A stretch of DNA of 64,000 bases from contig JAMFRP010000030.1 in NCBI GenBank assembly GCA_026224775.1, positions 10,013-74,012 on the forward strand, written 5' to 3'. The notes below the pieces were generated by a model, which had not been told where the DNA came from, made no database searches, and saw only the letters and a list, made by a program, of their open reading frames with translations. A program made the translations under genes and the position numbers. Positions 13,314 to 52,664 of this stretch are shown here, piece by piece. The DNA is from Bacteroidota bacterium. GTDB taxonomy: Bacteria > Bacteroidota > Bacteroidia > Sphingobacteriales > Sphingobacteriaceae. Each line of letters starts with the position of its first letter. The stretch's first letter is position 1.

Positions 13314-13374
13314 TATAAACACAGAAACCGGATCAATCATTCAATATACATCTAACTACCAGATAGTTAACAAA

Positions 13375-13390
13375 TGGCATTCACGTTGCA
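13375..13390 (+). promoter_or_regulatory. sigma54 -24/-12 promoter of the MBL hydrolase
   Basis: TGGCATTCACGTTGCA, near-consensus, 33 nt before ATG 13424; palindrome ends at 13313, 61 nt away. Confidence 0.8.
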
Positions 13391-21670: not shown

Positions 21671-21766
21671 TTTCGATAATTAGCGAAATAAAACTAATAA
21701 AATTAAAATAAAACACCATTCATAATGCTAATTATCAGGTATTTACTCATTGGCATAACACTTGGC
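21671..21766 (+). promoter_or_regulatory. Enhancer + sigma54 promoter module for the esterase unit
   Basis: TTTCG-ATAATTAG-CGAAA (21671-21688); TGGCATAACACTTGGC (21751-21766); spacer 62 nt. Confidence 0.7.
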
Positions 21767-35828: not shown

Positions 35829-38132
35829 TTGATTATGACTAAGATAATGCACCTTTTTTCCTGCTTTCCGGTCTGTCTGTTGTTCTTGCAATGTGTAGCA
35901 GCTAATGCGCAAACAACTCCAGGAATAGCCAAAAGATTGTATGTCCAAATTGCCAATGAGAACAACGATACTTTGAAATTGTACCGGATTCTGCAATTGG
36001 TAACATACCAAATAAAGAAACCCGGTGAATACAAGGCTGACCTCGACAGCGCAGAAATACTGATCAGGCGCGCAGAAAAGATAAACAGCCACTTAAATAA
36101 TGAAAAATATAAAGGGCTCATTGCTTTAAATAAATCATATTTCAATAAAAAACTGAATAATAGTGAAACAGGTAAAAAATTTGCCGAAAAGGCGGTCAGT
36201 GTTTTCAGCAAAATAAGAGGAGATTTTTCGCTATTGGGAGAATCCTACTTTGAGTTATCACAATTTTATAATGCAGATGAACCTGGAGGCTTCAAAGCAA
36301 AAGAAAAATATCTTGTAAAAGCAGCTTACAACTTCCAAAGAAGCGGCGATTATGAAAAAGAATCTATCAGCCATCGATACATGGGAAGTCTGTTAATGGA
36401 CCAGGGGAATAATATCAGTGGTAAGAAGGAAGTAGAACTGGCGTTGCAAATTGGCCTGAAGGCTCCTAACGCAAAACTCGAAGCTATCTATGACTTGCTG
36501 GCATCGGCGGAATGCCTTACGGAAAATTACCAGCGCGCAATTTACGATGAAAATGTGGCTATAAAGCAGGAGCAACACGATGCGGACACAGTGATGATGG
36601 AAACCAGTTATACCCGGCTTCTAATAATTTACGACCGCCTTAATGAATACAGGAAGGCATTATTTTATGGAAAGAAGGCATTGGTCATAGAAGAACATTT
36701 GAGAGATACAAATGCAGTTTATATAACAGCAAGCAATATAAACAGGGAATTATCAAGATTTAACAAGAATGTTGAAGCACTAAAATTCATTAGTGACATT
36801 GCCGCTACCTATCCGAAACCAAGCGACCCAGATTTAAAAGTATCCCTTTACATGCCTTTTCTTGCTGATTATACTGCCCTTTATCAAACCGCAAAGGCCC
36901 AACATTATCTTGATCTTTTGTTGCCTATGTTAAAGAAAAACTATGACGACGTATATGTTAAAGAAAGTGTATACAGGCTTGCAGTCAACTTTTATATAAG
37001 TAGTAAAAACTACCCCCTCTCTCAACGGTTCGAAATACTCTATTCAAATTTAGCCAAGCATTTTAACAATAAGATTTACCTAGCCAGAAACAGCCTGATG
37101 CAGTTCAGGATTGATTCTGCGCAGCAGCATCTTGAATCAGCAATGGATCATTTATTGAAATGGCATAAGCTGTCGACTGACATACAAAACGAGACGAACA
37201 CCAAAGCGATCAGTGACATAGAGGCTGAATACGAAGCCGATAAAAGAGAAATAGAACTTCAGCTCAAAGATCAGAACATTAAAGTATTAACCCAAAATGA
37301 ACAGTTGCAGAAGCTGAATTTAAAAAAAGCTGCATCGCTCAGTAATGAACTGATCGGAGGAAGTTGTTTATTACTGATCATACTTATTTTACTTATTTAC
37401 CAAAATCAGTTGAGAAAAAAGAACCAAAAGGCAATGGCTAAAAAAAACAAGTCCATGGAACTTTTACTTGTTGAAAAAGAAAGTTTGATTAAGGATAAAG
37501 AAAGTTTATTGGAGGACAAGGAAGTCCTTATACAGGAAATTCATCATCGGGTCAAGAACAACTTACACATGATTAGCAGCCTGCTGGAATCTCAATCAGC
37601 TTTTTTGGCAGATGATGCGCTATTGGCCATAAGAAAAAGCCAGAATCGTGTCCAGGCGTTATCTCTCATTCATCAAAAGCTATATGTTAATGATAATGTC
37701 ACTGATGTGTTGATGTCGGTCTACCTGCGGGAACTCATCAATTATTTGAAGGATAGCTTCGTCACAGATGAAAATATAATTTTTCACTTTGATCTTGATC
37801 CGATACAGCTGGATATCAAACAGGCGGTTCCGGTTGGATTGATTGTCAATGAGGTGCTTACCAATTCAATAAGATTCGCATTTCCGTCCAATTACGAGGG
37901 ACTGATTGAAATTTCATTAAAACAGAAATTCATTAACCAGATTGTATTGACCATCCGTGATAACGGCATAGGTCTTTCCGAAGATTTTAATATTGATGAA
38001 AGCCAAATAACTAACCACACACTGGGCATGAGCTTAATAAAGGGCCTGAGCAAAAGCTTACAAGGCACTGTAACTTTCAGCTCAGAGGGCGGTACCAAAA
38101 TAGAACTAATTTTCTTTAACGATCATGATTAG
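35829..38132 (+). CDS. TPR-like membrane sensor histidine kinase (HisKA_2)
   Basis: Signal peptide; helical repeats; TM; QEIHHRVKNNLH; NEVLTNS; RDNGIG. Confidence 0.93.
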   Translation: MIMTKIMHLFSCFPVCLLFLQCVAANAQTTPGIAKRLYVQIANENNDTLKLYRILQLVTYQIKKPGEYKADLDSAEILIRRAEKINSHLNNEKYKGLIALNKSYFNKKLNNSETGKKFAEKAVSVFSKIRGDFSLLGESYFELSQFYNADEPGGFKAKEKYLVKAAYNFQRSGDYEKESISHRYMGSLLMDQGNNISGKKEVELALQIGLKAPNAKLEAIYDLLASAECLTENYQRAIYDENVAIKQEQHDADTVMMETSYTRLLIIYDRLNEYRKALFYGKKALVIEEHLRDTNAVYITASNINRELSRFNKNVEALKFISDIAATYPKPSDPDLKVSLYMPFLADYTALYQTAKAQHYLDLLLPMLKKNYDDVYVKESVYRLAVNFYISSKNYPLSQRFEILYSNLAKHFNNKIYLARNSLMQFRIDSAQQHLESAMDHLLKWHKLSTDIQNETNTKAISDIEAEYEADKREIELQLKDQNIKVLTQNEQLQKLNLKKAASLSNELIGGSCLLLIILILLIYQNQLRKKNQKAMAKKNKSMELLLVEKESLIKDKESLLEDKEVLIQEIHHRVKNNLHMISSLLESQSAFLADDALLAIRKSQNRVQALSLIHQKLYVNDNVTDVLMSVYLRELINYLKDSFVTDENIIFHFDLDPIQLDIKQAVPVGLIVNEVLTNSIRFAFPSNYEGLIEISLKQKFINQIVLTIRDNGIGLSEDFNIDESQITNHTLGMSLIKGLSKSLQGTVTFSSEGGTKIELIFFNDHD

Positions 38133-38353: not shown

Positions 38354-39730
38354 ATGAATAAGAAAATCCTAATAGTCGAAGATGGTTTTGTAGAAGCCAA
38401 TAACCTGAGTATCATCCTAGAGCGGGCCGGTTTTATCGTGTGTGATATCGCAGACTCTTACGACGAAGCGATACGTTGTATCCATAAAGAAACGCCTGAC
38501 CTGGTGCTCCTGGATATTTTCCTTAATGGCAAGAAAACAGGCATCGACCTAGCCAGGGTACTCAAAGAAAAAAAAATGGCATTCGTATACTTATCAGCGA
38601 ATTCCAACAAGGATACCTTGGCTGCTGCCAAGTTAACTGAGCCCTACGGTTTTCTCGTAAAGCCTTTCAGGGAAAAAGACATCCTGATTACGTTGGATAT
38701 TGCAAATTACTTGCACGAACAAAAACAGAAATTCCAACAAAATGAAGACAGTCTTTCTCATTTTACGAAGCCCCCTAAATTCGAAGGGGTCATCGGCAAT
38801 TCTGCAGGTTTGCAGGAAGTGCTTAAACTGGTAAAGATCGTAGCGCCAACGGAGACCTCTGTGTTGATTCTCGGCGAAAGCGGTACGGGTAAAGAAAGAA
38901 TTGTTGACAGCATCCACGCTAACTCCCAGCGTAGCAAAAAACCACTCATTAAGGTAAATTGTGCCGCCTTACCTGCTAACCTTATCGAAACTGAACTTTT
39001 CGGACATGAACGTGGCGCATTCACCGGGGCAAGCGAACAACGAATCGGAAAATTCGAACAGGCTCATACGGGAACCATCTTTTTGGACGAAATTGGCGAG
39101 ATGCCGATTGACCTTCAGGTCAAACTCCTAAGGGTCTTACAGGAAAAAGAAATAGAGCGTATAGGCGGTAAAGGTTCCTTTAAAGTGGATGTGCGGATAA
39201 TTGCGGCCACTAACAGAAGCCTGGAGAAGGAAGTATCGGAGGGCAGGTTCAGAATAGATCTTTATTACCGGCTTAACGTTTTTCCGATATCGCTACCACC
39301 GTTGCGGGAGCGGGCGGGCGATATTCCGCTGCTGGCAGCCCACTTTGTACAGCATTTCTGTAAGATGAACAATTTACCGGTTAAAGAAATATCGGAGAAG
39401 GTAATGAAAACACTACAGTCCTATTCCTGGCCGGGCAACATCCGAGAACTCGAACACCTTATTGAGCGCAGTATACTACTTAATCCCGATCAGGTCATTA
39501 CGCAAATTGCTCTCCCGCAAATGGCTGGCAATACCTCGGTCATTAATGATGACAAAAAAGTAAAGACCATCAAAGAAATGGAAATCGACCATATCAAATC
39601 CGTACTTGAAAAGTGCAACGGAAAAGTTTCCGGACCTGGTGGTGCAGCTGAGCTTCTGGAACTTCCTTACAGTACATTAATCTCCCGAATCAAAAAGCTG
39701 GGTATAAAAACTGATAAGTATTTTCATTGA
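38354..39730 (+). CDS. Sigma54-dependent response regulator (REC + AAA+ + Fis HTH)
   Basis: IVEDG, LLDI, KPF; GESGTGKE; [15 protein letters not shown]; [22 protein letters not shown]. Confidence 0.95.
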   Translation: MNKKILIVEDGFVEANNLSIILERAGFIVCDIADSYDEAIRCIHKETPDLVLLDIFLNGKKTGIDLARVLKEKKMAFVYLSANSNKDTLAAAKLTEPYGFLVKPFREKDILITLDIANYLHEQKQKFQQNEDSLSHFTKPPKFEGVIGNSAGLQEVLKLVKIVAPTETSVLILGESGTGKERIVDSIHANSQRSKKPLIKVNCAALPANLIETELFGHERGAFTGASEQRIGKFEQAHTGTIFLDEIGEMPIDLQVKLLRVLQEKEIERIGGKGSFKVDVRIIAATNRSLEKEVSEGRFRIDLYYRLNVFPISLPPLRERAGDIPLLAAHFVQHFCKMNNLPVKEISEKVMKTLQSYSWPGNIRELEHLIERSILLNPDQVITQIALPQMAGNTSVINDDKKVKTIKEMEIDHIKSVLEKCNGKVSGPGGAAELLELPYSTLISRIKKLGIKTDKYFH

Positions 39731-39771: not shown

Positions 39772-41400
39772 CTATCCCAGGTGACATTGGCGATCAGCTA
39801 TCGATACGAGGGCCTTTTTATGAGTGACCATAACAATTGTCTTTTTACCTTTCCATGTCGTCAACAAATTCATAAAGTTGGCTTCAGCTTTTGTATCCAG
39901 ACCTTCGGTTGGTTCATCCAACAATAATACCGGTGCATCTTTGAGAATTATCCTGGCAAGGGCGACCATTCTCGCCTGTCCACCGGAAATATTTTTTCCC
40001 AATTCTCCGGCAATATTATCGAGGAATTTGGGGTTATGTCGAATTTCAGGACCCAGACCGGCACGTATAGCCGCATCTGTCACTTCGCGCTCAGTAGCAT
40101 CAGTCCGGGCCAGGGCAATGTTCTCAAATAAGCTGATATTAAACAACGTGGCATGCTGTTCCATATAGGCAATGTGGTTATTTAATTGTTCGGGATTGAA
40201 AAAATGGGCAGCCTTACCGTTTATGCCTGCTATGCCCGAATCAGGGCACCGGAGCCCGGACAACATGTCCAGCAAAGTTGTTTTACCACTGCCGTTGCAA
40301 CCTGTCACTGCCGTAATTAGACCCGCCTGAAATTTGAAGTTAAAATCCGTCAGTACATCCCGGCCCTTATAGGCAACGTTAACGTTTTTCACCTCCAGGT
40401 CATAAATCGCGGGCAAACTTAGATTCTCAGCTAATGTTGTATCTTTTGTTTTGTCCCATTCAGCCAGGCTATTGCCTGACCAATTGGTTCGCGATAATTG
40501 CTGGGCGGCAGCGGGCAGCAGATAAAGTATTTCAGCTAGAGCCAGCCAGGTGACGACGATCAAAACAATAGTCGTCATTTCAATTTGGCCACGCTGTTTT
40601 TCTGCTAAAAAAATTATTGCAATTAGACCGAGCTGCAGGATAAATTGCTGAAGCAGTTGCCAGTATGCGAGCTTCATTTTGGACGCTGATCTGATATACT
40701 GTTCGCATACCAGTTTACTTTCTATAAGCATGCGGTTACCATTCAACAGTCCGAACTGACGGAGATCCCGGAATCCTCTCAACCAGGTCATTATGTCGAT
40801 GTGGGCCTGCCGCCTGATCAGCAGGCTTTCTTCTTCCGGACCGGTTGTGGCTCTAAATGACAGGTATGGAATTATAATTCCGGCAATTGAAAACAGCCCT
40901 GCCAATAAAACAGCAACGGTCGGCAACAGAAAGTAGGCTACAGATCCGGCCAGTAAGAATAATATGGCTGCAGTGATCCATGGCAATATAACGGCTTGGT
41001 AAAGCTGATCCATATCTTCCAGATCATTGATCAGCTCGCTGAGCAATCGGGAAGAACGGAATTTGACCAGTTCCGCCTTTTTAAACATCAATATTTTGTC
41101 GAACACCCATGCCCTGGCTAAACTTAATTTATCCAGCGTAACCCGGTGCGTATACCTGTTTTCAAAATATTTGTTCACCGGCCGGGCCAGCGCCAGAAAA
41201 CGTATGACCGAACTTGGCAAAAATATATTATATCCTTGTAGGCCGATTATTCCGAGACCCGTAAGGGCGGTCGCCGTTATAAACCAGGCCGAACAGCTTA
41301 CCAGCAACAGCCCGCATGAAAGTGCCGAAACGGCAAGAAATATTCCTACCCACTGAGCCCGGCTCAGTTTTTTATAAATACCTGGTATTTTAGTCAGCAT
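39772..41400 (-). CDS. cydC: Thiol-reductant ABC exporter subunit CydC
   Basis: SAWFITATALTG, RFLALARPVNKYFENRYTHRVTL, GCNGSGKTT, ISGGQARMVALAR, LLLDEPTEGLD; downstream of cydD. Confidence 0.85.
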   Translation of the reverse strand: MLTKIPGIYKKLSRAQWVGIFLAVSALSCGLLLVSCSAWFITATALTGLGIIGLQGYNIFLPSSVIRFLALARPVNKYFENRYTHRVTLDKLSLARAWVFDKILMFKKAELVKFRSSRLLSELINDLEDMDQLYQAVILPWITAAILFLLAGSVAYFLLPTVAVLLAGLFSIAGIIIPYLSFRATTGPEEESLLIRRQAHIDIMTWLRGFRDLRQFGLLNGNRMLIESKLVCEQYIRSASKMKLAYWQLLQQFILQLGLIAIIFLAEKQRGQIEMTTIVLIVVTWLALAEILYLLPAAAQQLSRTNWSGNSLAEWDKTKDTTLAENLSLPAIYDLEVKNVNVAYKGRDVLTDFNFKFQAGLITAVTGCNGSGKTTLLDMLSGLRCPDSGIAGINGKAAHFFNPEQLNNHIAYMEQHATLFNISLFENIALARTDATEREVTDAAIRAGLGPEIRHNPKFLDNIAGELGKNISGGQARMVALARIILKDAPVLLLDEPTEGLDTKAEANFMNLLTTWKGKKTIVMVTHKKALVSIADRQCHLG

Positions 41401-43153
41401 ATGCAGTTAACTTAATTTCACGATACTCTTCAAATGCGCCGTAAGCTTCCCCATGACCTGTTACCACGATGGTCTTGTGATGCCCCACCTTACTGATCAT
41501 TATGGCGAAATTTTCAGCGCTGGCCGGATCTAGGTGTGTCAGCGGTTCATCCAGTATGATGATACGTGACTTACGTACCAGGGCCCGCGCCAGAGCTATT
41601 TTTTGACGCTCTCCCCCGGATATGGATTTCCCATCCTCGGCGAGGTAAGTATCTAATCCCATCGGCAATTTTTCCAATAGCATGTGCAAACCTGCAGGTA
41701 TTATTACATCTTCCCATAATTCAGTATCCGGAAGTGATGCCCCCATGAGGATATTGGACCTGATTGTTCCCTGAAAAATACTCGTTTGCTGGTTGATGAC
41801 TGAGATCTCCCGGAATAATTCTGCTTCGCTAAGGCTTTCTATGCGTTGTTTCCCGAGCAGGATAATACCACCCCGTGGTTTTTGCCAACCCAGTAGCAGT
41901 GCTACCAATGTTGATTTTCCAGATCCATTCGGACCCGTAATCCTGACTTTGTCGCAGGGGCCTACGACCAAACTGAAATTTTTAAATAATTGCTTCTTTT
42001 CTGAATAAGCGAAGTCTACATTTTTGAAAATCAGGGGAAGTGGCAGAAAAATATCCTCCTCCCCTGCGGGCTTGCCATTTGGTGTAAATATCTTGTCCCT
42101 TAACTCTTCACCCGGTGCTTGTTTCCCGATGTCCGGAATAGTATTAAAGAAACCTGCCTCCTGCAGACTGATGACGGCTCCTAAGGCATGCCCACGATCA
42201 TGATAATAGTTACCAAGCGTCTTAAATGCAATAAAATATTCAGGAATCAAAAGTAGGATGATAAGGCCACTCCGCAGCGATGCACCACCCTGCGGGCCAT
42301 AATTGATATAATGGATCATGTTGAGCCCTATAAAAATGGCACAGCCGGCAATAATGATCGCACTGAGAAACTCTAGTACAGCTGAAGAAAGAAATGCTAT
42401 TTTTAGCACTTTTAGCACCTGATCACCATAGGATTTGGCAAAATACTTTACTTGTTCTGACTGCTTTCCGAGTTGGTTGAACAGGTACAATGTTGTGATT
42501 CCTTGTAGCCGATCCATAAAATATCCCCCCATCTGCGCCAGCGAGTCCCATTGTTCCCTGCTTTTTTCTTCTGAACCACGACCGATGATAATCATGAATA
42601 TCGGAATAGCGGGTGACATGACTAAAATCAGCAATGCGCAAACCCAGTTAATGGTCATTAAATAAACCAAAACGGCTAAAGGCATCATAATACAAAGGAT
42701 CATTTGTGGAATGTAACGGGTGAAATACGGTGCGATTACTTCTGTTTTATTTAACAGACCCAATGTAATGCCGGCAGGCGATTTATCCTGGTGAACAGGC
42801 AGATAACCCCTTTGAATTTCTTCAAACAGGTCACTGCGAAGCGTTACGGTAATTTTTTCTGTAAGCCCCGCGCTTTGGCAATTGCTGAAATAATTCATCA
42901 GGGGCCTGCCTGCCCCGGCGAGCGCTATGCAGACTAATCCAGCATAGAAATCATGTATTGACAGGTTATGCAATGCCATTCCGCTAATGAGACCTGCAAT
43001 TAAAATAAGCTGGATATTAACCAAAACAAATGCGGTGAATTTTAAAGCTGTTATGCCAATGATCGCTCTTTTCCATGGGTCAAGAAAATCATTTAGTAAA
43101 ACATTTGCTTTTGAAGCAGCAGCTTTATCGTATTGAGGACTGGCGTTTGACAT
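41390..43153 (-). CDS. cydD: Thiol-reductant ABC exporter subunit CydD
   Basis: YFTRYIPQ, F.DRLQGITTL, VLKIAFLSSAVLEF, LLIPEYF..LGNYYHDR, GPNGSGKST, ISGGERQKIALAR. Confidence 0.88.
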   Translation of the reverse strand: MSNASPQYDKAAASKANVLLNDFLDPWKRAIIGITALKFTAFVLVNIQLILIAGLISGMALHNLSIHDFYAGLVCIALAGAGRPLMNYFSNCQSAGLTEKITVTLRSDLFEEIQRGYLPVHQDKSPAGITLGLLNKTEVIAPYFTRYIPQMILCIMMPLAVLVYLMTINWVCALLILVMSPAIPIFMIIIGRGSEEKSREQWDSLAQMGGYFMDRLQGITTLYLFNQLGKQSEQVKYFAKSYGDQVLKVLKIAFLSSAVLEFLSAIIIAGCAIFIGLNMIHYINYGPQGGASLRSGLIILLLIPEYFIAFKTLGNYYHDRGHALGAVISLQEAGFFNTIPDIGKQAPGEELRDKIFTPNGKPAGEEDIFLPLPLIFKNVDFAYSEKKQLFKNFSLVVGPCDKVRITGPNGSGKSTLVALLLGWQKPRGGIILLGKQRIESLSEAELFREISVINQQTSIFQGTIRSNILMGASLPDTELWEDVIIPAGLHMLLEKLPMGLDTYLAEDGKSISGGERQKIALARALVRKSRIIILDEPLTHLDPASAENFAIMISKVGHHKTIVVTGHGEAYGAFEEYREIKLTAYAD

Positions 43154-43163
43154 AAATACCGGG

Positions 43164-44405
43164 TTATATACGCTGATATTTAAAACAGGCAGCCAAAAAT
43201 ATAACGATGAAAACCGCTATAGCAAACTGCGCCGTCAGATCGCCAAAAAATCCAAGTACCACAAAAAAGAAGAAGATACCACCCAACGAAATCGCAATGC
43301 GCCATGGCCATGCCATGGTGAGTACCTTGAAGCCAGCGTGATCATTCCCGTTTACCTTTACCTTGCTTTTTAATAGTTCGGATTCTGCCAGCGAGGGTTC
43401 ATAATTATCCTTTCCACTGACCTTGCCCTTGAAAACGATATAGGAATAAATAAAATAGGCCAGTATTATCGGGACGATAACAAGAGAACAGATGAGCAAT
43501 ATACGATTACCGTAAGCGGGAGAGCCGGCATCGAATATGGTCAGATCAGGCGGAACAATATAAGGCCAGAAGCCGGACACGATGTAAAGCGCAGATCCGG
43601 CTGTCATCAATATATTCAGCACAAAAGGCAAAATATCATTTTTCCTGTCAACCGTAAAATAAATGGCGGCGGTTAAAATCACTGTTGCTATATACCATAC
43701 GATCGAGGGTAATGACAGTATCCTGCCAATGCCAAAAGCGCCGAACCTTGGGATAAATATTTCTAAGTAAAAACGCCCGAATACGACAAGTATTAATAAG
43801 AGCAGCAAGCAAAAAATTATTCTTTTAACAAAGCGTTTGAATGTTGCCTGGAGCTTTCCGCTTGTCTTAAAGTTCAACCAGGTCGCGCCGATAAGCGCAT
43901 AGGTCACAATGAGCACCAAGCCTATTAAGATAGTAAAGGGACTTAAAAAATTGAAGGTAATGTCGCGGTACGCAATATCCTTATATACCTTTATCCCTTC
44001 CATGAGGTTACCTAAAACTAATCCCTGGCAAAAGACAGCCATTACAGACCCAAAGGAAAATGCCGCATCCCACCATGATTTCCTGTGTACCGACACAAAA
44101 CGGAATTCCATGGCGACCCCGCGAAGGATCAGGCCTATGACCATAACAATCAGCGGCAGGTATAATGCGGGCAGCAGTACGCTGTAAGCCTTAGGAAATC
44201 CGCCGAATAAGCCGACTCCTAAGAGGATCAGCCATGTTTCATTTCCGTCCCACACCGGTGTAATTGAATCGACCATGGTATCCCGGGAGGATTCATTCTT
44301 AATAAATGGAAAGAGTATCCCTACCCCGAGATCAAATCCGTCGAAGATGGTATACATTACAGCGGCAAAACATATGACCAATGCAAATAAAATGTGAATA
44401 TCCAT
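43164..44405 (-). CDS. cydB: Cytochrome bd ubiquinol oxidase subunit II with C-terminal extension
   Basis: FDGFDLGVGIL, ITPVWDGNETWL, LRGVAMEFR, WPYIVPP.LTIFDAGSP, Y.Y.VFKGKV, then about 80 extra aa with hydrophobic helices. Confidence 0.92.
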   Translation of the reverse strand: MDIHILFALVICFAAVMYTIFDGFDLGVGILFPFIKNESSRDTMVDSITPVWDGNETWLILLGVGLFGGFPKAYSVLLPALYLPLIVMVIGLILRGVAMEFRFVSVHRKSWWDAAFSFGSVMAVFCQGLVLGNLMEGIKVYKDIAYRDITFNFLSPFTILIGLVLIVTYALIGATWLNFKTSGKLQATFKRFVKRIIFCLLLLLILVVFGRFYLEIFIPRFGAFGIGRILSLPSIVWYIATVILTAAIYFTVDRKNDILPFVLNILMTAGSALYIVSGFWPYIVPPDLTIFDAGSPAYGNRILLICSLVIVPIILAYFIYSYIVFKGKVSGKDNYEPSLAESELLKSKVKVNGNDHAGFKVLTMAWPWRIAISLGGIFFFFVVLGFFGDLTAQFAIAVFIVIFLAACFKYQRI

Positions 44406-44412
44406 AGCTCAA

Positions 44413-45807
44413 TTATTTAACATTTAATTTAATCCCTTCAGGAAGCCCGGAAATAAAGTTATCGGTCTTTCTTTCATCTGTTTTTAATGTATTTTGAATC
44501 TCTTCCGGACCCTTTTGTACTATCTTACAAATGAATTTAATATACGCCGCCAATAAGATAATATAGGTAATCAGGAAAAGGCTGAATGAGAAAACAACCT
44601 GAAAATTACTCAGGGAAGATGCTGCCGCCTCTGTCCGGAGCAAGCCATAAATTACATAGGGTTGCCTTCCTGTTTCAGAAGTAATTCAACCGGCTATTGT
44701 CGCAATAACACCCGCCGGTGTCATGAAAATACTCATTTTTAAAAACCATCGTTTAACGAATAAGTTTCCTGTAAATCTCAGTGCAATGCTAGTTAATGCG
44801 GTAAAAAACATGAGGATGGCAATTAAAAACATTACCCTGAAGAAGTAAAAGGTAAGGGCCATATTCGGTTGATTTTCCGGAGGTGTCCTTTTCAAACCTT
44901 GTACCGTACCATGCAGGCTATGGGTTATTAATATACTGCCCATATATGGAATACCGACCTGAACATCGTTCCGTTGATTTTTAAAATCAGGATTGACAAA
45001 AAGAAGGTAAGGCGCTGTTGGTGTATCTTCCCAAAAACCTTCCAGCGCTTCGGTTTTCGCGGGCTGATAAACAGCCATTTTTGCGTATAGCGTATCTCCT
45101 ACCCATAATTGAACCGGTATTAAAACAGTTATAATCGCCAGGGAAATGGAGTAAGTGGTTTTCGCAAAGCTGAGATACCGGTTTTTCAACAAGTACCATG
45201 CAGAAATACCGGCAACGAGGAAGCTGGAGGCGAACATCGAAGCCAGTAACATATGGGGATATCTGATATAGAAAGACGGATTGAAAACGGCGTGCCACCA
45301 TTCAGTAATGAAATATTGCCCATTACTGAATTTATAACCCGCGGGTGTATGCAGCCAGGAATTCGCACCCAGAATCCAGGTTGCCGAAATCAGGGTACCT
45401 ACGGCAACCATCAGCGTTGCAAAGAAATGTACTTTCTTATTTACCCGGTTCCATCCCAATAACATGATCCCTAAAAAACCTGCTTCAAGGAAAAATGCGG
45501 TCATTACCTCCAGTCCAATGATACTGCCTAAAACCGGTCCTGCCGCATAAGAGAATTTTGACCAGTTAAGGCCAAACTGAAAAGACATAAAAATACCGGT
45601 CACCACACCTATCGAGAAGTTCAAGGCAAAAATTGATGTCCAGAATTTGTATATCCGGAAATATTCTACTTTTCCCGTTTTAAGATACATGCCATGAATC
45701 AGCACCAGAAACCACGACAAGCCGATAGAAAGCGCGGGAAACATAATGTGGTAACTGGCGGTAAAACCAAATTGAAAACGAGAAAGAAATTCTGCAAAAT
45801 TATTCAT
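44413..45807 (-). pseudogene. cydA: Cytochrome bd oxidase subunit I (short Q-loop), interrupted by in-frame TGA at 44686-44688
   Basis: SRFQFGFT..YHIMFP, EVMTAFFLEAGFLG, PHMLLAS, KTEALEG, FRVM; frame reads AG*ITSETGRQPY across the stop (conserved AGWxxxExGRQPW) and continues to TAA 44413, 464 codons in total. Confidence 0.9.
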
Positions 45808-45827
45808 GACTTTATCATGTTTAAAGT

Positions 45828-46532
45828 TTATGGATGTAAGTTGAGATCAACTGCCGGTTCGTTTTTACGTCTGGCCAGGGCGTAACCCAATAATGCAAGA
45901 CCCGGAAAAAGCACAGCGGTCAGTCCGATTAATTTTGCTAAAATGCCACCGCAGAGGCATCCCACCAAAAACCCAATGATCGTGACCAAACCATGTATTA
46001 AACTATTCCTGACATCCATATCCTGAAAGCCAGCTGTTATCACCTTGCCCAGATCCAATGCCGCCTGAGTTACATTCCCCGTCATCATTGTGGTTGGCCC
46101 ATAAGTCTCCTTTCCATACAGCTTTCCAAAAGCATTCTGAAGCCCCATCGCAAAAACTATACACATGGCCATGACCAGGCTTACCCATTCCATCCCTTGC
46201 TGTCCGGTCATTAAAAGGATCAGGCAGATTACGCCGGTTGCGGTCAAAATAGCACCCTGTAACAGTAATAAGGTGCACGCCTGCACCTGCCGGGAGGCAA
46301 TTGCCCCACCGGTGATAACAGCCAGAATAAATACCGGGAAGCTTAACAGTTTAAGCCAGGCTTCAGTATCTGCGTGTTTGATGATATCGTACGCGAAGAC
46401 AATAAAGTTTCCCGTTACATGTGCTGAAAATAGCTCATTAACGGAGACGAAGGTTACCGTGTCACAGTAGCCGGCAGTTATTGCGAGCAAAATCGTGATG
46501 TACACGATCGTTTTTGGCCGTTCCATATTCAT
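45828..46532 (-). CDS. YoaK/DUF1275 family membrane protein
   Basis: AGYCDTVTF..LFSAHVTGNF, AMGLQNA, TTMMTGNVTQ. Confidence 0.92.
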   Translation of the reverse strand: MNMERPKTIVYITILLAITAGYCDTVTFVSVNELFSAHVTGNFIVFAYDIIKHADTEAWLKLLSFPVFILAVITGGAIASRQVQACTLLLLQGAILTATGVICLILLMTGQQGMEWVSLVMAMCIVFAMGLQNAFGKLYGKETYGPTTMMTGNVTQAALDLGKVITAGFQDMDVRNSLIHGLVTIIGFLVGCLCGGILAKLIGLTAVLFPGLALLGYALARRKNEPAVDLNLHP

Positions 46533-47006
46533 TTACTTTAAATGCGCTCTTAACATCCAGGCCATTTTCTCATGATCTTCCATCAGTCCGGTTACATAGT
46601 CGCTCGTTCCAAGATCTTTAAGCTCGTTTGCGAAAATGTTGATATTTTCTCTGAGGTGTATGATGAGGCTTTCATGATCAGCCAGCAGTTCACGGATATA
46701 GGACAAGCTGTCATTTGTATTTTCCTGGCGTTCAGAAAAATGCGTCAGGTCAAGGAATATTTTTAGCGTGCCGGTTGCAAAATGGCCCAATGAACGGACA
46801 CGTTCCGCCACACTATCCATGATCTCATCCAACTGCTGATACTGGCTTTCAAAAAACACATGTTTGGTATGAAAATCCGGCCCTTCAATATTCCAGTGCG
46901 CATTGCGGGTTTTGGTGTACAGCACGTATTCATCTGCCAGAATAATGTTCAGTGCCTGTGCGACTTTGCTTAGATTTTCTGTGGAAATGCCAATGTTAGG
47001 TTTCAT
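46533..47006 (-). CDS. dps: DNA starvation/stationary phase protection protein Dps
   Basis: LADEYVLYTKTRNAHWNIEGPDFHTKHVFFESQY..D..AERVRSLG..HEKMAWMLRA; start ATG 47006 (the 47162 start overlaps DoxX). Confidence 0.95.
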   Translation of the reverse strand: MKPNIGISTENLSKVAQALNIILADEYVLYTKTRNAHWNIEGPDFHTKHVFFESQYQQLDEIMDSVAERVRSLGHFATGTLKIFLDLTHFSERQENTNDSLSYIRELLADHESLIIHLRENINIFANELKDLGTSDYVTGLMEDHEKMAWMLRAHLK

Positions 47007-47022
47007 TTTTTTATAGTATAGA

Positions 47023-47457
47023 TTAGTTTTTAAATAAGTTGAGATAGATGTAGTGATCGGCTGAGATACTCCCCGGTCCCATAAAAAGCAGAAACAGGAA
47101 ACACACGGTATAGGTGTAAGGAACATCCCTGATTGCGATAGGGTCGTCGCGGTGGACCACAAAATAGCCGATGGAAGTCACCCCGATTGTTGGCAAAATA
47201 GCCAGTCGCGTACCGATACCCAAAATAACCAGCGCCGGGACAACCGTATCGGAAAATGTGGCTACGAGATTGTTAAGTGCTTGCGGTAAGCCAAGTGGAT
47301 TAGGTACCACTTCAGGCTTACCATTGTTTCCGCGAAACTTTTTCAGCCCGTGTACCCGAAAAAGCTCAACTGCAAGCAATACCCTGAAGCCGAACACTGC
47401 CCAGTTGTTGATTGAGCTGCCCGCATCGGTGAAAAGTATTATTTTTAAGATTTCCAT
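47023..47457 (-). CDS. DoxX family membrane protein
   Basis: FRVLLAVELFRVHGLKK..LVILGIGTRLA..GPGSISAD. Confidence 0.88.
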   Translation of the reverse strand: MEILKIILFTDAGSSINNWAVFGFRVLLAVELFRVHGLKKFRGNNGKPEVVPNPLGLPQALNNLVATFSDTVVPALVILGIGTRLAILPTIGVTSIGYFVVHRDDPIAIRDVPYTYTVCFLFLLFMGPGSISADHYIYLNLFKN

Positions 47458-47474
47458 GTCGGTGTGTTAAAGGA

Positions 47475-49394
47475 TTAAAATGCAAAGCAGGAGCAACCCA
47501 GGGCACCCCAGAACGCGCTGAAGTTATTAATAGGCACGTCACTCATGCGGGCGGCATTGTGATTATGACCGTGCACGCCGCAGCTGCCGATACACTGGTG
47601 AATTGCAGTGACGATGTTCAGCTTTTGTATCGCTTCCTGTTCCTTTCGCTGAACTGCAATCGCTTGTTTTGATCTTGCCAATTCCAGATTATTGCTCCCC
47701 GGGTAATAGCCGTTATAAATTTTTACAGGAGACCAGTCGGGCAGTATAGGTATAACCGGAGGGGTATGACTTTTAAAATCGCCTATCGCGTAAACAATCT
47801 TTCCATCGACTACCGTCAATTCAGCTTCAATGGACTTAATTTCTTCATCGGTAACCGTAAAGTAGTCTTTGTTTAACACAACAAGATCTGCCAGCTGACC
47901 GACCTTAATGCTGCCCTTCTTATGTTGCTCATTGGAAAACCAGGCGCTCCCCCTGGTATATAGCTCCAATGCCGTTTCCCGGCTTATTCTTGAATTTTGG
48001 TGAAACAGTTCCATGCCCCCCACTGTTTTTCCGGAAGAGAGCCAATACAGCGCAACCCATGGATTATAGCTGGAAACGCGGGTAGCATCAGTTCCTCCGC
48101 CGACAGGTATTTCCATATCGAGCATTTGTTTAACGGGAGGCGTGGCACCTGCCGCCTCAAGGCCATATCGGCCTGCGAAATTCTCCCCCTGGAAAGCCAT
48201 CCGGTTCTGAATAGCGATACCTCCCCCAAGCGCTTTTACCCGCTCCATATTTTTTTCATCTATGGTTTCTGCGTGATCAAATATCCAGGGCAACCCATCA
48301 AAAGGGATTTCCCGGTTAATTTTTTCAAATACATTTAAAAAACGAGTGATACTTTCATTATAGGTGGCGTGCAGGCGAAAAGGCCACCGGTTTTCAACCA
48401 ATAAATTAACTACCCTTTCCAGTTCTTCTTCCATAAGTTCGGGCAAATCCGGGCGGGGCTGAACAAAGTCTTCGAAATCGGCAGCTGAAAATACCAGCAT
48501 TTCCCCTGCCCCGTTATGGCGGTACATGTCATCACCCTGATAGAGCTTTACAGTCTTTGTCCAATTGTCAAAATCCTCCTTTTCCTGGTTAGGATGCTGG
48601 GTGAAAAGATTATATGCAATACGCACGGTAAGCTGGCCCTGCTCATTTAGCTCCTCGACGATTTTGTAGTCATCCGGGAAATTTTGAAAACCACCACCTG
48701 CGTCAATAACGCTGGTAATTCCAAGGCGATTCATTTCCCGCATATAGTGCCGGGTAGAGTTCACCTGGTGTTCATAGGATAATTTAGGCCCCTTAGCCAG
48801 GGTCGAATACAGTATCATCGCATTCGGCGTGGCCAAAATAAGCCCGGTAGGTTCGCCATTGGCATCATATTCAATCTGACCACCTTTTGGCGAGGGTGTA
48901 TCTTTATTAAAACCCACCACTTTTAAAGCAGCCCGGTTCAAAAAAGCCCGGTCGTAAAGATGCAGTATAAAGACCGGGGTATCCGGTGAAAGGTCGTTAA
49001 TCTCCTTTAGAGTGGGCATTCTGCGTTCGGCGAATTGGAATTCGGTCCAGCCGCCTACTACCCTCACCCATTGGGGCGAAGGTGTACGATCTACCTGTTC
49101 TTTAAGCATCCGGAGCGCATCCGCCAGCGACGGCACGCCGTCCCACCGCAGCTCCAGATTATAATTCAGGCCGCCACGGATTAAATGAGTGTGTGAGTCA
49201 TTAATTCCCGGAACCACAGTTTTCTTTTTGAGGTCGATCTTTATAGTAGTATCTGCCGCGAGCAGCATTACACTCGCGTCATCTCCAACGGCTATAAATT
49301 TGCCGTCACTAATCGCCACCGCTGTAGCTTTAGGCGCATCTCTGTCAACGGTATGAATTGCACCATTGTAAAGGATCATATCAGCTTTTTTCAT
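47475..49394 (-). CDS. Amidohydrolase 3 family metallohydrolase (YtcJ-like)
   Basis: VVPGINDSHTH, FRLHATY, FDHAET, GGTDATRV, GSIKVGQLADLVVL. Confidence 0.93.
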   Translation of the reverse strand: MKKADMILYNGAIHTVDRDAPKATAVAISDGKFIAVGDDASVMLLAADTTIKIDLKKKTVVPGINDSHTHLIRGGLNYNLELRWDGVPSLADALRMLKEQVDRTPSPQWVRVVGGWTEFQFAERRMPTLKEINDLSPDTPVFILHLYDRAFLNRAALKVVGFNKDTPSPKGGQIEYDANGEPTGLILATPNAMILYSTLAKGPKLSYEHQVNSTRHYMREMNRLGITSVIDAGGGFQNFPDDYKIVEELNEQGQLTVRIAYNLFTQHPNQEKEDFDNWTKTVKLYQGDDMYRHNGAGEMLVFSAADFEDFVQPRPDLPELMEEELERVVNLLVENRWPFRLHATYNESITRFLNVFEKINREIPFDGLPWIFDHAETIDEKNMERVKALGGGIAIQNRMAFQGENFAGRYGLEAAGATPPVKQMLDMEIPVGGGTDATRVSSYNPWVALYWLSSGKTVGGMELFHQNSRISRETALELYTRGSAWFSNEQHKKGSIKVGQLADLVVLNKDYFTVTDEEIKSIEAELTVVDGKIVYAIGDFKSHTPPVIPILPDWSPVKIYNGYYPGSNNLELARSKQAIAVQRKEQEAIQKLNIVTAIHQCIGSCGVHGHNHNAARMSDVPINNFSAFWGALGCSCFAF

Positions 49395-49412
49395 AGCAGG
49401 AAGTTTAATAGT

Positions 49413-50162
49413 TTAATTATGACGGTCTTTCAAATACTGTTTAATAGCAACCCCTGAAGGATCGTAGAATGCCTGACCGGCTAACATGGTGATCTTCACC
49501 AGCGGCTTTTTCGATGTAGCATGTTTGCTCTGCAGGTAGAGGTCTGTTTCATAAGCCTCAAAAGCGCCTTTCACCACATTCGTAGCCACTAATCCGGTAG
49601 GTGAATCAATTCCGCCATCTTTCAGGTCACTGCCATGCGCATAACTGCTTACACCCAGCACTAAAGCTTCCCGCATCCCGATACGGCCGATATCAATCAT
49701 CAGGTCAGGCGTAAACTTGGTACGGTCACCAAGACCTATTAATAGCAAACGTTTCGCGCCTATTGTCCCTTTCGGAGGAGTGATAAGCAGCGTTTCCCGC
49801 AAATGGCCTGAAAACTTTCCGCTTTTTCTCAGGTCCTGGATTAGCCCGTTCAATTGCTTATCTACATGTACAATACCATTTGCCGCTGCCGGTAACGCCG
49901 GTGGGGAGGTAAAAATATCATTCTCTGTATATTCAAATAAGCAAATCACCTGTAATGGCGTCACTTCGTTAGAAGGACTTTGCACCATGCCTTCAATGGC
50001 TATACCGTCTATCTTTCCGAAAATGCTGTGCGTCCCGACAGGTTCTAATGTCACTGGGTGAGTACTAGGAGTCTGGGCCATAGCCGTTGCCGATAATAGC
50101 AAGCAGACAAATAAAATATAATGCGTTTTAAAGCGATTAAATAATCCTTGATTTGATTTCAT
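49413..50162 (-). CDS. Exported stand-alone M17 aminopeptidase N-terminal-like domain protein
   Basis: Signal peptide; VDKQLNGLIQDLRKSGKFSG..ETLLITPP..KRLLLIGLGD; no catalytic domain follows. Confidence 0.75.
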   Translation of the reverse strand: MKSNQGLFNRFKTHYILFVCLLLSATAMAQTPSTHPVTLEPVGTHSIFGKIDGIAIEGMVQSPSNEVTPLQVICLFEYTENDIFTSPPALPAAANGIVHVDKQLNGLIQDLRKSGKFSGHLRETLLITPPKGTIGAKRLLLIGLGDRTKFTPDLMIDIGRIGMREALVLGVSSYAHGSDLKDGGIDSPTGLVATNVVKGAFEAYETDLYLQSKHATSKKPLVKITMLAGQAFYDPSGVAIKQYLKDRHN

Positions 50163-50180
50163 GATGGTTCTTATTAGTTT

Positions 50181-51584
50181 TTAAAATTTAAATGATATTC
50201 TTGAGTTGGTTTCTACTGCATTTTTATGATTCGGTATTTCCGCATTTATATATGGCCCGGTTTTGAAGTACTGCAGGCCGAAATCCACGCTAAGAAATGC
50301 GTTAAAGACATAACTGACTTTTGCCAGGTAATCCGTTCCGATGTACTTTTGTGTGGTTCCGTCCCCGGTAAGATTAAATGCGCCGCTGGGACGATAGATA
50401 CCATCATTGACCGAATAACGCCAGTTGTAAACGATATCTGCCAGGAAAGTCAAACCGGGACAAACCTGAATAGAAGCGTAAGGGTGAATATCTATTAGGT
50501 TGACCGGGCCGATTTGCGGATCAAAACCAAAATAGCCACCTTTCGGATAGATCGGGTTAAAGGTCTCCAGGTCACCGCCGCTTTTATTGCCGCCACCTGA
50601 GATATAGTCGTTCCTTAACCCAAAAGCTGGCCTAGATTTAAGATCAGCGAAGATATAGCCCAGGTCAAAAGAAGCCGTCCAGGCGCTAATGCTCTGACCA
50701 CTGAATTTGCCAAACTGATAGGCGGCTTCAATGTCATAAACGAATCCGTTATTATTTTTCCAGAGCCTGCCGCCTATGGTATGTCTGACCTCGTTACCCG
50801 TACCCTCATTATAAACAACACTGTCCTTCCGGTTGCCGATGTAATAGAAGTCCACGTTCTTATTCCCCTCCAGGTTTAGCGTTGAGTAGAAGCCCCAAAG
50901 ATTGACCTGTTTGGTCATTTGATTATCAAATACCCCCGGTTTCACCTGATCGGCCTCCATCGCGAAAGCGTCGACTGACAGGTTCTGATATTTGTAAATT
51001 GCTTTTAATCCCGTAAAATAAAGCCGGACATTGGGGCCCTCCCTAACGGATATCAGTCTTCCGGCACCGTAATTCAGTTCCTGTCTTCCCGCCCTGATAA
51101 TCAGGGAGTCTTTACTGCTGCGCCATATCTTCAGATCGGCAAAAAGATTTTGGACATTCAGCTGGTCTTCATCAATTGGCCTCGGCCCCATCGGGCGACC
51201 ATTCTCCAGGGCGCTCCTGAGCTGGAAAAAGATTCTGAAGTCGTTTCCAAATTCCCAGTCGGTATGCAGGTCATAGCGTTGCAGATAAAAATTGTCGTGA
51301 CCCGCATCAACTTTGCCCCAGTCCTCATTGTCAAAAGCATCAAATTCTTGTCGTGCTTCACCACCTATTGATAGAAAATCATTGCCATTAGCCGACAGTG
51401 GTATAAATTTAATATGATTATAAAAGCTCAGCGTAGTATCCGTTTTAAGATTGCTGTAATTTTCATCATACCGCATCAATTGAAAATTTTGCCCAAAAGC
51501 CGAACCCGCCGTCGATAGGGATAGGATCAAAAAGAGCCAAATAAAACAGGTGAAAAAATTCGTCGAAGTAAGTTTGGAAAACAT
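50181..51584 (-). CDS. Alginate-export-family (AlgE-like) outer membrane porin
   Basis: Signal peptide; RYDENY..KFIPL; LIIRAGRQELNYGAGRLISVREGPNVR; FNPIYPKG; ends RISFKF; likely start ATG 51584. Confidence 0.88.
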   Translation of the reverse strand: MFSKLTSTNFFTCFIWLFLILSLSTAGSAFGQNFQLMRYDENYSNLKTDTTLSFYNHIKFIPLSANGNDFLSIGGEARQEFDAFDNEDWGKVDAGHDNFYLQRYDLHTDWEFGNDFRIFFQLRSALENGRPMGPRPIDEDQLNVQNLFADLKIWRSSKDSLIIRAGRQELNYGAGRLISVREGPNVRLYFTGLKAIYKYQNLSVDAFAMEADQVKPGVFDNQMTKQVNLWGFYSTLNLEGNKNVDFYYIGNRKDSVVYNEGTGNEVRHTIGGRLWKNNNGFVYDIEAAYQFGKFSGQSISAWTASFDLGYIFADLKSRPAFGLRNDYISGGGNKSGGDLETFNPIYPKGGYFGFDPQIGPVNLIDIHPYASIQVCPGLTFLADIVYNWRYSVNDGIYRPSGAFNLTGDGTTQKYIGTDYLAKVSYVFNAFLSVDFGLQYFKTGPYINAEIPNHKNAVETNSRISFKF

Positions 51585-51633
51585 TAGCTGAATAATTAAC
51601 GGAGACAGACAAATGCCTGCCTCCTTGGATAAT

Positions 51634-52266
51634 TTAGTGAGCAAGCATTTTTTGAGCGTATTGAATACCATTTCCATAGGCTCCGCCATATCTTTTCATC
51701 AGGTCATTAACCGGATAATAGGTATCTAACCTGGCCCAGTCACGTTGAAGTTCAAGGCAATATTGTATGGCAGTCACTGGTTGTGCTCCCGCCTGAATCA
51801 TCCGTTGTACTGCGCGTTCATGTGCCTCTACACTCACGTCTCCGCAAGCATCTGTAATCACATAAACTTCGTATCCTTCGTCTATGGCAGATAAAGCGGG
51901 CCCGACAATACACACGCCTGTCCATAAGCCGGCCATGACGATTTTTTTATTCCCTTTGCCGGTTATAGCCTTATAGGCGGCTGCATCTTCCCAGGTATTC
52001 ATCGTTGTACGATCCAGGTAATTGCTGCTTGACTTGGGGTAAATATCTTCCACTTCCTGAAATACCGGCCCACTAAAAATCTCCTCCTTAACAGTGGTCA
52101 CTATTGTCGGAACGTTAAATATTTTCGAAGCCCCCGCAACAATAGCAGTGTTCGTCCTTAGTTCGCTCATCGCTATGCTATTGGTAGCAAAGCCCATTTG
52201 ACCTTCGAAGTCAATAAGTACAAGGGTGTGATTTCCCGGCGTTAAAAGTTTCTCTGATGGTTTCAT
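51634..52266 (-). CDS. ycaC: YcaC-like isochorismatase-family cysteine hydrolase
   Basis: LVLIDFEGQM (Asp), RTTMNTWED, AGLWTGVC (Cys), TDACGD..AHE.A..RM.QAGA..ELQRDWAR; likely start ATG 52266. Confidence 0.88.
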   Translation of the reverse strand: MKPSEKLLTPGNHTLVLIDFEGQMGFATNSIAMSELRTNTAIVAGASKIFNVPTIVTTVKEEIFSGPVFQEVEDIYPKSSSNYLDRTTMNTWEDAAAYKAITGKGNKKIVMAGLWTGVCIVGPALSAIDEGYEVYVITDACGDVSVEAHERAVQRMIQAGAQPVTAIQYCLELQRDWARLDTYYPVNDLMKRYGGAYGNGIQYAQKMLAH

Positions 52267-52296
52267 ATTTAAAAGCAATTAATTTCACGGCACAGA

Positions 52297-52392
52297 ACCA
52301 AGTAAAATGCCAAGCATATAAAATGCTTTATATCAACTATTTATAAAATAAAAACCTTATCTACTTTAGTCATATTTAAAGAATTAGCGATT
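52297..52392 (-). promoter_or_regulatory. Enhancer + IHF-like + sigma54 promoter module for the ycaC-cyd operon
   Basis: TGGCATTTTACTTGGT on minus (52297-52312); TATCAACTATTTA (52331-52343); TTTAA-AGAATTAG-CGATT (52375-52392); spacer 62 nt. Confidence 0.7.
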
Positions 52393-52570: not shown

Positions 52571-52664
52571 TATCGCAAAAAAGCGAAATATGACTAAACC
52601 CAGCAATTACGAAAATTCACAACAAACTGATTAACTGATATTTAGTCAACGGGCATGAGATTGG
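52571..52664 (+). promoter_or_regulatory. Enhancer + IHF-like + sigma54-like promoter module for the sORF and HD-Pycsar gene
   Basis: TATCG-CAAAAAAG-CGAAA (52571-52588); AATCAGTTTGTTG on minus (52620-52632); CGGGCATGAGATTGG (52650-52664); spacer 61 nt. Confidence 0.55.

Follow-up and report, generated by a model that had tools for sequence, protein, structure and literature searches.

A cytochrome bd gene set joined to a conserved seven-gene hydrolase module in Mucilaginibacter: a probable lineage-specific operon fusion

The subject of this report is a run of eleven genes, ycaC to cydC, in a 64,000-nucleotide stretch of contig JAMFRP010000030.1 (assembly GCA_026224775.1), which is called the window here and whose host is a soil Mucilaginibacter (the window amidohydrolase is 77-82% identical to Mucilaginibacter-named proteins). 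Judged from gene order in other genomes, the conserved unit is made up of the first seven genes, ycaC to the DUF1275 gene, and the last four, cydABDC, encode a cytochrome bd oxidase of a separate clade together with a predicted ABC exporter. We read the run, with a probability of about 0.55, as a lineage-specific operon fusion in which cydABDC was joined to the 3' end of an inducible seven-gene module, with a bypass oxidase as the working model for its function. We class the system among inducible alternative oxidases that have joined an operon for stress or detoxification. The genes are as follows, in the order of reading.

51634-52266, minus strand: ycaC, a YcaC-like cysteine hydrolase of the isochorismatase family without signal peptide (Pfam E = 1.5e-23)
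50181-51584, minus strand: outer-membrane porin of the AlgE type (Alginate_exp) with a signal peptide (Pfam E = 1.2e-56)
49413-50162, minus strand: M17_N protein, a leucyl-aminopeptidase N-terminal-like domain alone, exported (Pfam E = 2.5e-10; signal peptide read from the sequence)
47475-49394, minus strand: YtcJ-like metallo-amidohydrolase (Amidohydro_3) of 639 aa (Pfam E = 1.7e-125)
47023-47457, minus strand: DoxX-family inner-membrane protein (Pfam)
46533-47006, minus strand: Dps-like ferritin (Pfam E = 1.5e-23)
45828-46532, minus strand: DUF1275 (YoaK-like) membrane protein, the final gene of the module conserved in Bacteroidota (Pfam; gene order in 20 loci)
44413-45807, minus strand: cydA (Cyt_bd_oxida_I), with a short Q-loop and interrupted by TGA (Pfam PF01654; trees)
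43164-44405, minus strand: cydB (Cyt_bd_oxida_II), with a C-terminal extension of ~80 aa (Pfam PF02322)
41390-43153, minus strand: cydD, ABC exporter subunit (TIGR02857 E = 2.8e-122, 409 bits against a cut-off of 435)
39772-41400, minus strand: cydC, ABC exporter subunit (ABC_tran and a weak ABC_membrane match)

The first-pass annotation, made from the letters alone, had named eleven co-oriented genes separated by 0-50 bp, and both statements hold: the open reading frame list and Pfam scans place all of them on the minus strand with the identities given, and the gaps from ycaC to cydD, taken from the most plausible starts, are 49, 18, 18, 17, 16, 0, 20, 7, and 10 nt in order, followed by an 11-nt overlap of cydD and cydC.

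The module and the oxidase clade beside it

The module was surveyed from its amidohydrolase in 80 species-representative genomes with 10-kb flanks. The order ycaC-porin-(M17_N)-amidohydrolase-doxX-(dps)-DUF1275 was found in 20 Bacteroidota loci, belonging to Mucilaginibacter, Flavobacterium (several species), Chitinophaga, Chryseobacterium, Larkinella, Fibrisoma, Filimonas, Niastella, Hufsiella, and Sporocytophaga. YcaC and the amidohydrolase, at times with DoxX and DUF1275, also occur together in many Proteobacteria, where the neighbors include regulators of the LysR family, an alpha/beta hydrolase or an ABM protein. The gene that comes after the amidohydrolase is doxX in nearly all loci of Bacteroidota and in several of Proteobacteria. 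No cydA was present within 10 kb in any of the other amidohydrolase-centred loci (79/79). By these neighborhoods the oxidase is an optional accessory and not the core of the module, most modules having no cyd genes nearby.

With respect to ycaC clusters that extend into cyd genes, the count of 0/79 made the linkage look unique, and this reading was reversed by the surveys centred on cydA. The refuting condition named in the first-pass annotation, a linkage private to this genome, does not apply, since the same cydA clade adjoins the module in other Mucilaginibacter, in Bosea and in metagenome contigs. Cluster-type cydA is carried by 3 of 150 other Mucilaginibacter species and the orthologous amidohydrolase by 12-13 of 150, including 3/3 of those with cluster-type cydA, in which the two genes lie 7, 19, and 26 kb apart on the same contig. 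The arrangement differs within the genus: in M. celer cydABDC is followed by ycaC-porin-M17_N-amidohydrolase-doxX; in a metagenome-assembled genome of the genus from ENA two other genes stand between cydABDC and the series beginning with ycaC; and in the closest other species (G119) a separate unit, small open reading frame-YceI-cydABDC, lies behind a canonical TGGTAT-N5-TTGC element, TGGTATCCTTTTTGCA, with the TTTCG-N8-CGAAA palindrome of the window sites 62 nt upstream. Only this species and its relative of 97.5% DNA identity, the metagenome contig L081, showed the eleven-gene fusion as such.

Outside the genus the adjacency recurs in other orders and orientations. In Bosea eneae the genes are Abhydrolase_3-Dps-YcaC-DUF1427-Amidohydro_3-DoxX-57 aa open reading frame-CydA-CydB-SLAC1-AlgE porin-MFS, with the stops and starts of DoxX, the small frame and cydA overlapping and the oxidase intact. 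Locus L128 reads ECH-YcaC-Amidohydro_3-MIP channel-63 aa open reading frame-CydA-CydB, then a gene of no assigned family, VOC, AlgE porin and DUF1275. In one JGI contig CydAB is convergent with MFS-isochorismatase-DUF1275-porin-DUF1427-Amidohydro_3-isochorismatase; a second JGI contig carries isochorismatase-M17_N-ABM-Amidohydro_3, further genes, a 60 aa open reading frame and CydAB; and in Burkholderia cepacia a YcaC-like isochorismatase gene comes after CydAB. A Sphingomonas member of the clade has no module gene beside it and sits among mobile and defence genes.

All module-linked cydA genes fall into one clade. A tree of 141 CydA sequences, with the housekeeping copy as its root, groups them with the 120 best database hits included there (support 100), apart from the short-Q-loop CydA of the ordinary kind in 20 Alphaproteobacteria sampled at random. 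A cydA-centred metagenome scan yielded 80 loci: 17 in the clade (support 98 in a second tree), an eighteenth, partial sequence put there on 55% identity to the query, L081, and 61 outside. Among the loci flanked by 5 kb or more, a module gene is present in 9/12 of the clade and in 0/50 of the non-clade short-Q-loop type, for which Fisher's test gives p about 1e-8, a value that is overstated because the loci are kin; YcaC and the amidohydrolase are both present in 5 of the same 12. Among 300 sampled Alphaproteobacteria an ordinary short-Q-loop cydA was found in 55, the amidohydrolase in 20 and both in 11, and in only one of these 11 do the two genes lie within 15 kb (13 kb apart), with a cydA outside the clade. 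Thus the ordinary short-Q-loop cydA is common yet does not stand beside the module, which makes the link specific to one clade. Adjacency that crosses phyla, varies in arrangement and keeps to a single clade is the usual mark of functionally coupled genes, and such coupling of the cluster cydA clade with the module is, on this comparative evidence, probable.

The closest relatives of the window CydA are a few Mucilaginibacter sequences (70-85% identity), the next ones reach 50-56% and their named members are Proteobacteria, and no named Bacteroidota beyond Mucilaginibacter were found among the clade members examined. The Mucilaginibacter amidohydrolase is 73-82% identical to those of other Bacteroidota and only 58-63% to the cyd-linked ones of other lineages. 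The cassette is not the housekeeping oxidase and was probably acquired by horizontal transfer; the simplest history would be that cydAB(DC) of the module-associated clade entered a Mucilaginibacter ancestor, settled near the resident module and then, in this species, joined its 3' end.

The proteins and the stop codon in cydA

An in-frame TGA at 44686-44688 breaks the cydA gene of the window (TIAG-stop-ITSETGRQPY) and cuts off the last 91 residues of CydA. The codon stands at the Trp (W374) of the GW...E.GRQP motif, a residue kept in all of 25 diverse relatives and matched by AGWFMTEFGRQPW in E. coli bd-II (alignment to 7OSE). In L081, which carries the same eleven genes over 19 kb, cydA is intact with TGG at this codon, and the cyd genes of the two strains have ratios of nonsynonymous to synonymous differences (pN/pS) of 0.04-0.23, similar to the neighboring genes. 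The 34 tRNAs detected in the assembly, itself incomplete, include no suppressor and no Sec tRNA. Taken together, the intact relative, the purifying selection and the tRNA search leave two readings of the TGA, a nonsense allele of very recent origin or an error. The ratios do not support decay of the cyd genes; recoding of TGA was also rejected, given TGG in the 97.5% relative, the tRNA search and operon stops that are TAA in 10/11 genes and TAG in 1/11. Barring an error or read-through of the TGA, the oxidase arm is predicted to be inactive in this genome. The "full cytochrome bd system" of the first-pass annotation is therefore not full as the letters read: cydA, cydB, cydD, and cydC are all present, but cydA is cut.

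Apart from this codon, H20, E100, H185/M186, W374, E378, and R381 of CydA are invariant in 25 clade members. The Q-loop is short, with about 60 residues fewer than in E. coli bd-II (alignment to 7OSE), and the NCBIfam CydA equivalog cut-offs are not reached by the window protein. A second, housekeeping cydAB lies on contig C50 and is 33-34% identical to the cluster copy; no second cydDC-like pair was found elsewhere in the genome, and CydD of the cluster falls just under the TIGR02857 cut-off. In proteobacterial members of the clade a hydrophobic open reading frame of 52-63 aa overlaps the start of cydA (L087 6826-6999, L089 8820-8999, L090 8826-9008, L092 8846-9004, L128 4965-5156) and another of 37-67 aa follows cydB. 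The motif FF..(I/V)(I/L)G(V/F)FG is common to the upstream small peptide and to the CydB extension of Mucilaginibacter (43164-43400), by which CydB reaches 411-422 aa against about 330 otherwise. The small peptide is probably a clade-specific small subunit that is fused to CydB in Mucilaginibacter, as the shared motif suggests.

The YcaC-like protein scores 122 bits, below the cut-off of 310 of the YcaC equivalog NF041461 (NCBIfam), and its closest structures are 1YAC and 4WGF (E about 1e-27); the Dps-like protein matches the ferritin-like domain and remains below the NCBIfam Dps cut-off (83.8 versus 114). The amidohydrolase covers positions 3-472 of the 472 of profile PF07969, keeps the HxH metal motif (DSHTHL) in all aligned orthologues and is 65-82% identical across Bacteroidota and Proteobacteria, and no characterised close relative of it was found in database searches. 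It has no signal peptide, and the 18-nt gap to the preceding gene is too short to hold an upstream start. Its last ~45 residues (47475-47612) form a Cys/His-rich tail, H.C.G.C.VH.H.H..AR.S..P.......FWG..GCSCFAF-COOH, which sits behind a linker of variable sequence and is itself unchanged between Bacteroidota and Proteobacteria, with the ...WG.LGC.CFAF end kept in the cyd-linked amidohydrolases; the tail may be a metal- or redox-active module.

In the comparison of the window with L081 two genes stand apart. The ycaC genes are 93.2% identical, with indels and a pS of 0.23, and the dps genes 95.1%, with a pS of 0.23, so that their synonymous divergence is well above that of the operon neighbors (pS 0.01-0.12). 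This suggests patches of recombination inside the operon.

Promoter, internal signals and regulators

The signals and regulatory genes around the run are listed below.

52298..52312, minus strand: sigma54-type -24/-12 element TGGCAT-N5-TTGG, TGGCATTTTACTTGG, its 3' end 31 nt and its 5' end 46 nt before the ycaC ATG
52374..52391, minus strand: degenerate TTTCG-N8-CGAAA palindrome (~6/10 positions) at the canonical 61-nt distance from the ycaC -24 element
52571..52588, no strand: palindrome TATCGCAAAAAAGCGAAA with a single mismatch, placed 259 nt ahead of the ycaC promoter
51601..51624, minus strand: 10-bp G+C-rich hairpin with a poor T-tract, beginning 10 nt past the ycaC stop (z = -4.5)
38354-39730, plus strand: NtrC-type response regulator with REC, sigma54 AAA+ (GAFTGA) and HTH domains, convergent with cydC (Sigma54_activat E = 5e-72)
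35829-38132, plus strand: TPR-HisKA_2 histidine kinase preceding the response regulator
11078-11171, minus strand: sigma54-like unit with a palindrome 61-62 nt upstream, before a HisKA_2 kinase gene
13233-13389, plus strand: unit of the same build and spacing, before an MBL-fold hydrolase and MFS pair
21671-21765, plus strand: unit of the same build and spacing, before an Abhydrolase_3...DUF2630-GNAT-Pyr_redox run

The sigma54 promoter proposed before ycaC in the first-pass annotation is well supported. The GG and the spacing of the element match the consensus TGGCAC-N5-TTGCW, the -12 part reading GG and not GC, and this -12 base also varies among the relatives. An element of the TGGCA type lies 38-50 nt before the ycaC start in 13/21 Bacteroidota loci of different species, against 0.34 expected on average and 3 at most in shuffles. 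Exact matches to TGGCAY-N5-TTGS number three in the window, each directly upstream of a correctly oriented gene. The rpoN gene is present in the genome (Sigma54_DBD at C32:74916-75392), and an activator with GAFTGA adjoins the cluster.

Good palindromes precede sigma54-like elements by 61-62 nt at 13296 and 21671, and another, at 11154, belongs to a fourth site of more degenerate sequence; good copies at the canonical spacing are also found in loci L001 and L086. Genome-wide, two clear combinations of palindrome and promoter were found, both inside this window, from which the island looks like one local regulon. The palindrome at 52571..52588 may be a distal enhancer or may serve the divergent gene. 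The upstream region of P460, which had been described as co-regulated with the run, carries no copy of the promoter module, and the co-regulation is not supported.

The response regulator is likely the activator of the run and the kinase before it the sensor partner, the pairing of activator and promoter being presumed; a homologous kinase and regulator stand directly after the seven-gene module in many other Bacteroidota. Paralogous TPR-HisKA_2 kinases are spread around the island (9354-11021, 35829-38132, 54168-56618, and 56711-59179), and in G119 three of them stand in tandem beside cydABDC (L086 1897-9507). With several such paralogues the sensory input may have diversified.

As regards transcription downstream of the promoter, the consensus scans for internal signals remained at chance (33 promoters versus 29.5 expected, 21 terminators versus 14.4), with the hairpin after ycaC as the sole outlier. 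In the closest other species (L001/G119) a hairpin of another sequence lies at the same place and is followed by a T-run (z = -6.1); in more distant loci the ycaC 3' hairpin was not found. It is a candidate attenuator or 3'-end stabiliser and may act as either. In the ycaC-porin spacer of several Flavobacterium species (L007-L010, ~7500-7760) tandem repeats of the GAAAC(T/C)T type take the place of the hairpin. A single Bacteroidota-type TTTG...TAnnTTTG match occurs on the operon strand (43194-43226, minus strand), 40 nt before cydD; the whole-window count of this motif equals the chance expectation, and the match is no more than a candidate internal promoter. The gap of 20 nt between DUF1275 and cydA, compared with the 195-nt region upstream of cydA in G119, leaves no space for an upstream region of that type.

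Judging from these signals, we lean slightly towards all eleven genes, ycaC to cydC, being placed on one sigma54 transcript. This co-transcription, which we infer from spacing only, would probably be accompanied by partial termination after ycaC. The single transcription unit of the first-pass annotation is thus to be qualified by a terminator-like hairpin that parts ycaC from the rest, the other scans for internal signals being at chance.

Working model, rival explanations and known systems

In the working model the sigma54 promoter and the neighboring TPR-kinase/NtrC-type two-component system would drive the module in Bacteroidota, and a small amide-type compound or stress would induce two C-N hydrolases in the cytoplasm, which would handle the compound. 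Dps would restrain iron-driven oxidative damage, and a quinol oxidase that needs neither heme-copper oxidases nor bc1, assembled with the aid of CydDC, would sustain respiration while the compound or its product is present. We infer every biochemical step of this scheme and the nature of the compound, and confidence in any particular substrate is low. The genes found around the module in relatives or in the window (VOC dioxygenases, Abhydrolase_2, ABM, GST, OYE, alpha/beta hydrolases, DinB, YceI) point more to the handling of a toxic compound than to nutrition, and the porin together with MIP and SLAC1-type channels suggests a small polar solute.

Several observations weigh against a fusion with a bypass oxidase. 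The hairpin after ycaC could stop most transcripts, cydA is broken in this genome, the -12 element at ycaC has TTGG instead of TTGC, and the palindrome at the canonical spacing before it is degenerate. The oxidase is dispensable for the module, as follows from 0/79 loci with cyd genes and from only 1/11 Alphaproteobacteria with both genes within 15 kb. Kinship of the loci inflates the statistical support for the clade link, and no characterised enzyme came out of the database searches that is near enough to name the substrate.

More tentatively, the cydA clade, the small subunit, DoxX and the YcaC/YtcJ pair may constitute an undescribed two-part system, in which the hydrolases would destroy an amide-type respiratory poison to which the oxidase is insensitive; in a stronger variant the oxidase would burn the electrons of the product via DoxX and the quinone pool. 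We consider this doubtful. If it were true, aerobic respiration would have a branch specific to one substrate, and YcaC, the amidohydrolases of the PA2699 type and a new bd subfamily would gain a function.

According to another explanation, which follows the inference of the first-pass annotation and appears unlikely to us, an amide- or hydroxamate-like nutrient is imported and hydrolysed, the product (for example hydroxylamine, cyanide or sulfide) poisons heme-copper oxidases, the poison-tolerant oxidase and Dps give protection and P460 completes the pathway. The presence of a porin, an exported protein and two C-N hydrolases in the cluster is consistent with it, as are the small-solute channels in relatives (MIP in L128, SLAC1/TDT in Bosea and M. 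celer) and the recurring link of the bd clade with the module. However, protection would belong to the core if respiratory toxicity were inherent, and most modules stand without nearby cyd genes; moreover, there is no conserved inner-membrane importer, P460 lacks the promoter module, and the gene company elsewhere (VOC, ABM, GST, OYE, alpha/beta hydrolases, DinB) resembles detoxification more.

Equally improbable is an electron branch, in which the hydrolases would free a hydroquinone, aminophenol or thiol whose electrons pass through DoxX, a relative of DoxD, to the quinone pool and then to the clade bd oxidase with its own small subunit, the oxidase being a part of the pathway and not a bypass. 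Such a route would fit the position of doxX after the amidohydrolase in nearly all Bacteroidota loci and several of Proteobacteria, its place in Bosea immediately before the small open reading frame and cydA with overlapping stops and starts, and the small subunit-like peptide that the clade has of its own, but in L128 a MIP channel takes the place of DoxX, most DoxX-bearing modules have no dedicated oxidase, and the housekeeping bd oxidase (C50) of the same genome could oxidise the quinol. The least probable explanation is hitch-hiking, with the module and cydAB(DC) as island cargo without functional tie, their tight spacing due to chance deletion and the oxidase decaying: the patchiness of both gene sets in the genus (12-13/150 and 3/150 species), arrangements that vary between species, the broken cydA and the Sphingomonas member without module amid mobile and defence genes speak for it, but not the adjacency in at least two phyla in different orders and orientations, several with gaps of few nucleotides or overlaps, nor its restriction to one cydA clade (9/12 versus 0/50), the same type of sigma54 promoter and palindrome at the G119 cassette and the purifying selection on the cyd genes.

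A lineage-specific fusion with a bypass oxidase, the reading preferred here, is of interest in several respects. YcaC and the YtcJ-like amidohydrolase have no known substrate, although the latter is among the most conserved bacterial hydrolases examined (65-82% between phyla). The repeated adjacency of the bd clade hints that the target of the module is connected with respiration or the quinone pool, and in Mucilaginibacter the oxidase appears to have become linked anew to the resident module, in several layouts. The clade would represent a separate, unstudied branch of cytochrome bd, possibly with its own small subunit, and in literature searches nothing turned up on a bd oxidase beside YcaC, YtcJ, DoxX or DUF1275 genes.

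Among known systems the nearest are CioAB of Pseudomonas aeruginosa and other short-Q-loop bd oxidases, likewise two-subunit CydA/CydB quinol oxidases with a short Q-loop, where the oxidase is an inducible alternative branch used when the main oxidases are inhibited. In contrast to them, the window CydA belongs to a well-supported clade apart from the ordinary short-Q-loop CydA of Alphaproteobacteria and of 61 metagenome loci, and its oxidase is linked to a hydrolase module, in Mucilaginibacter also to cydDC, with a CydB that has a small-subunit-like tail. CIO-type enzymes are without a distinguishing sequence signature (bioRxiv 10.1101/2021.01.16.426971), and the likeness here rests on the short Q-loop. 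With cydABX plus cydDC and appCBX of E. coli the window shares subunits I and II, a predicted CydDC exporter of the kind needed for assembly and the GW...E.GRQP motif, the identity to E. coli CydA being low; in E. coli cydDC is unlinked and control is by ArcA/FNR, whereas the window has four contiguous genes behind seven unrelated ones and an apparent sigma54 stress promoter.

The crystal structure of YcaC has been available since the 1990s, and E. coli YcaC (1YAC) and P. aeruginosa PA1202 (4WGF) have the same isochorismatase-like cysteine-hydrolase fold as the first gene product. Unlike the window gene, ycaC of E. coli stands singly beside a LysR gene and has no amidohydrolase as a partner (PMC9068703). 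P. aeruginosa PA2699, the one studied relative of the amidohydrolase that could be traced, is a YtcJ-like amidohydrolase with Tat export from an upstream start codon and without assigned function, and a C-terminal His tag aggregated it (PMC4899797). Both PA2699 and the window amidohydrolase belong to PF07969 and are of similar size, a likeness at family level only, and the latter differs in having neither a signal peptide nor room for an upstream start. The conserved Cys/His tail could explain the aggregation of His-tagged PA2699, if this protein is an orthologue.

In the MhqR and CatR/YodB regulons of Bacillus subtilis (mhqNOP, mhqED, catDE) a toxic aromatic co-induces DoxX-like, VOC and Abhydrolase_2 proteins. 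These quinone-stress regulons have MarR-type repressors, no sigma54, no YcaC/YtcJ pair and no dedicated oxidase, and the window island resembles them by domain content only, namely, by a VOC/Abhydrolase_2 pair and DoxX. The pair consists of a two-domain VOC (glyoxalase-type) gene followed by an Abhydrolase_2 esterase (25941-27519), it also lies near cydAB-YcaC in Burkholderia cepacia (L091 16703-18360), and we take it to be the domain pair of the B. subtilis quinone-resistance genes mhqE and mhqD.

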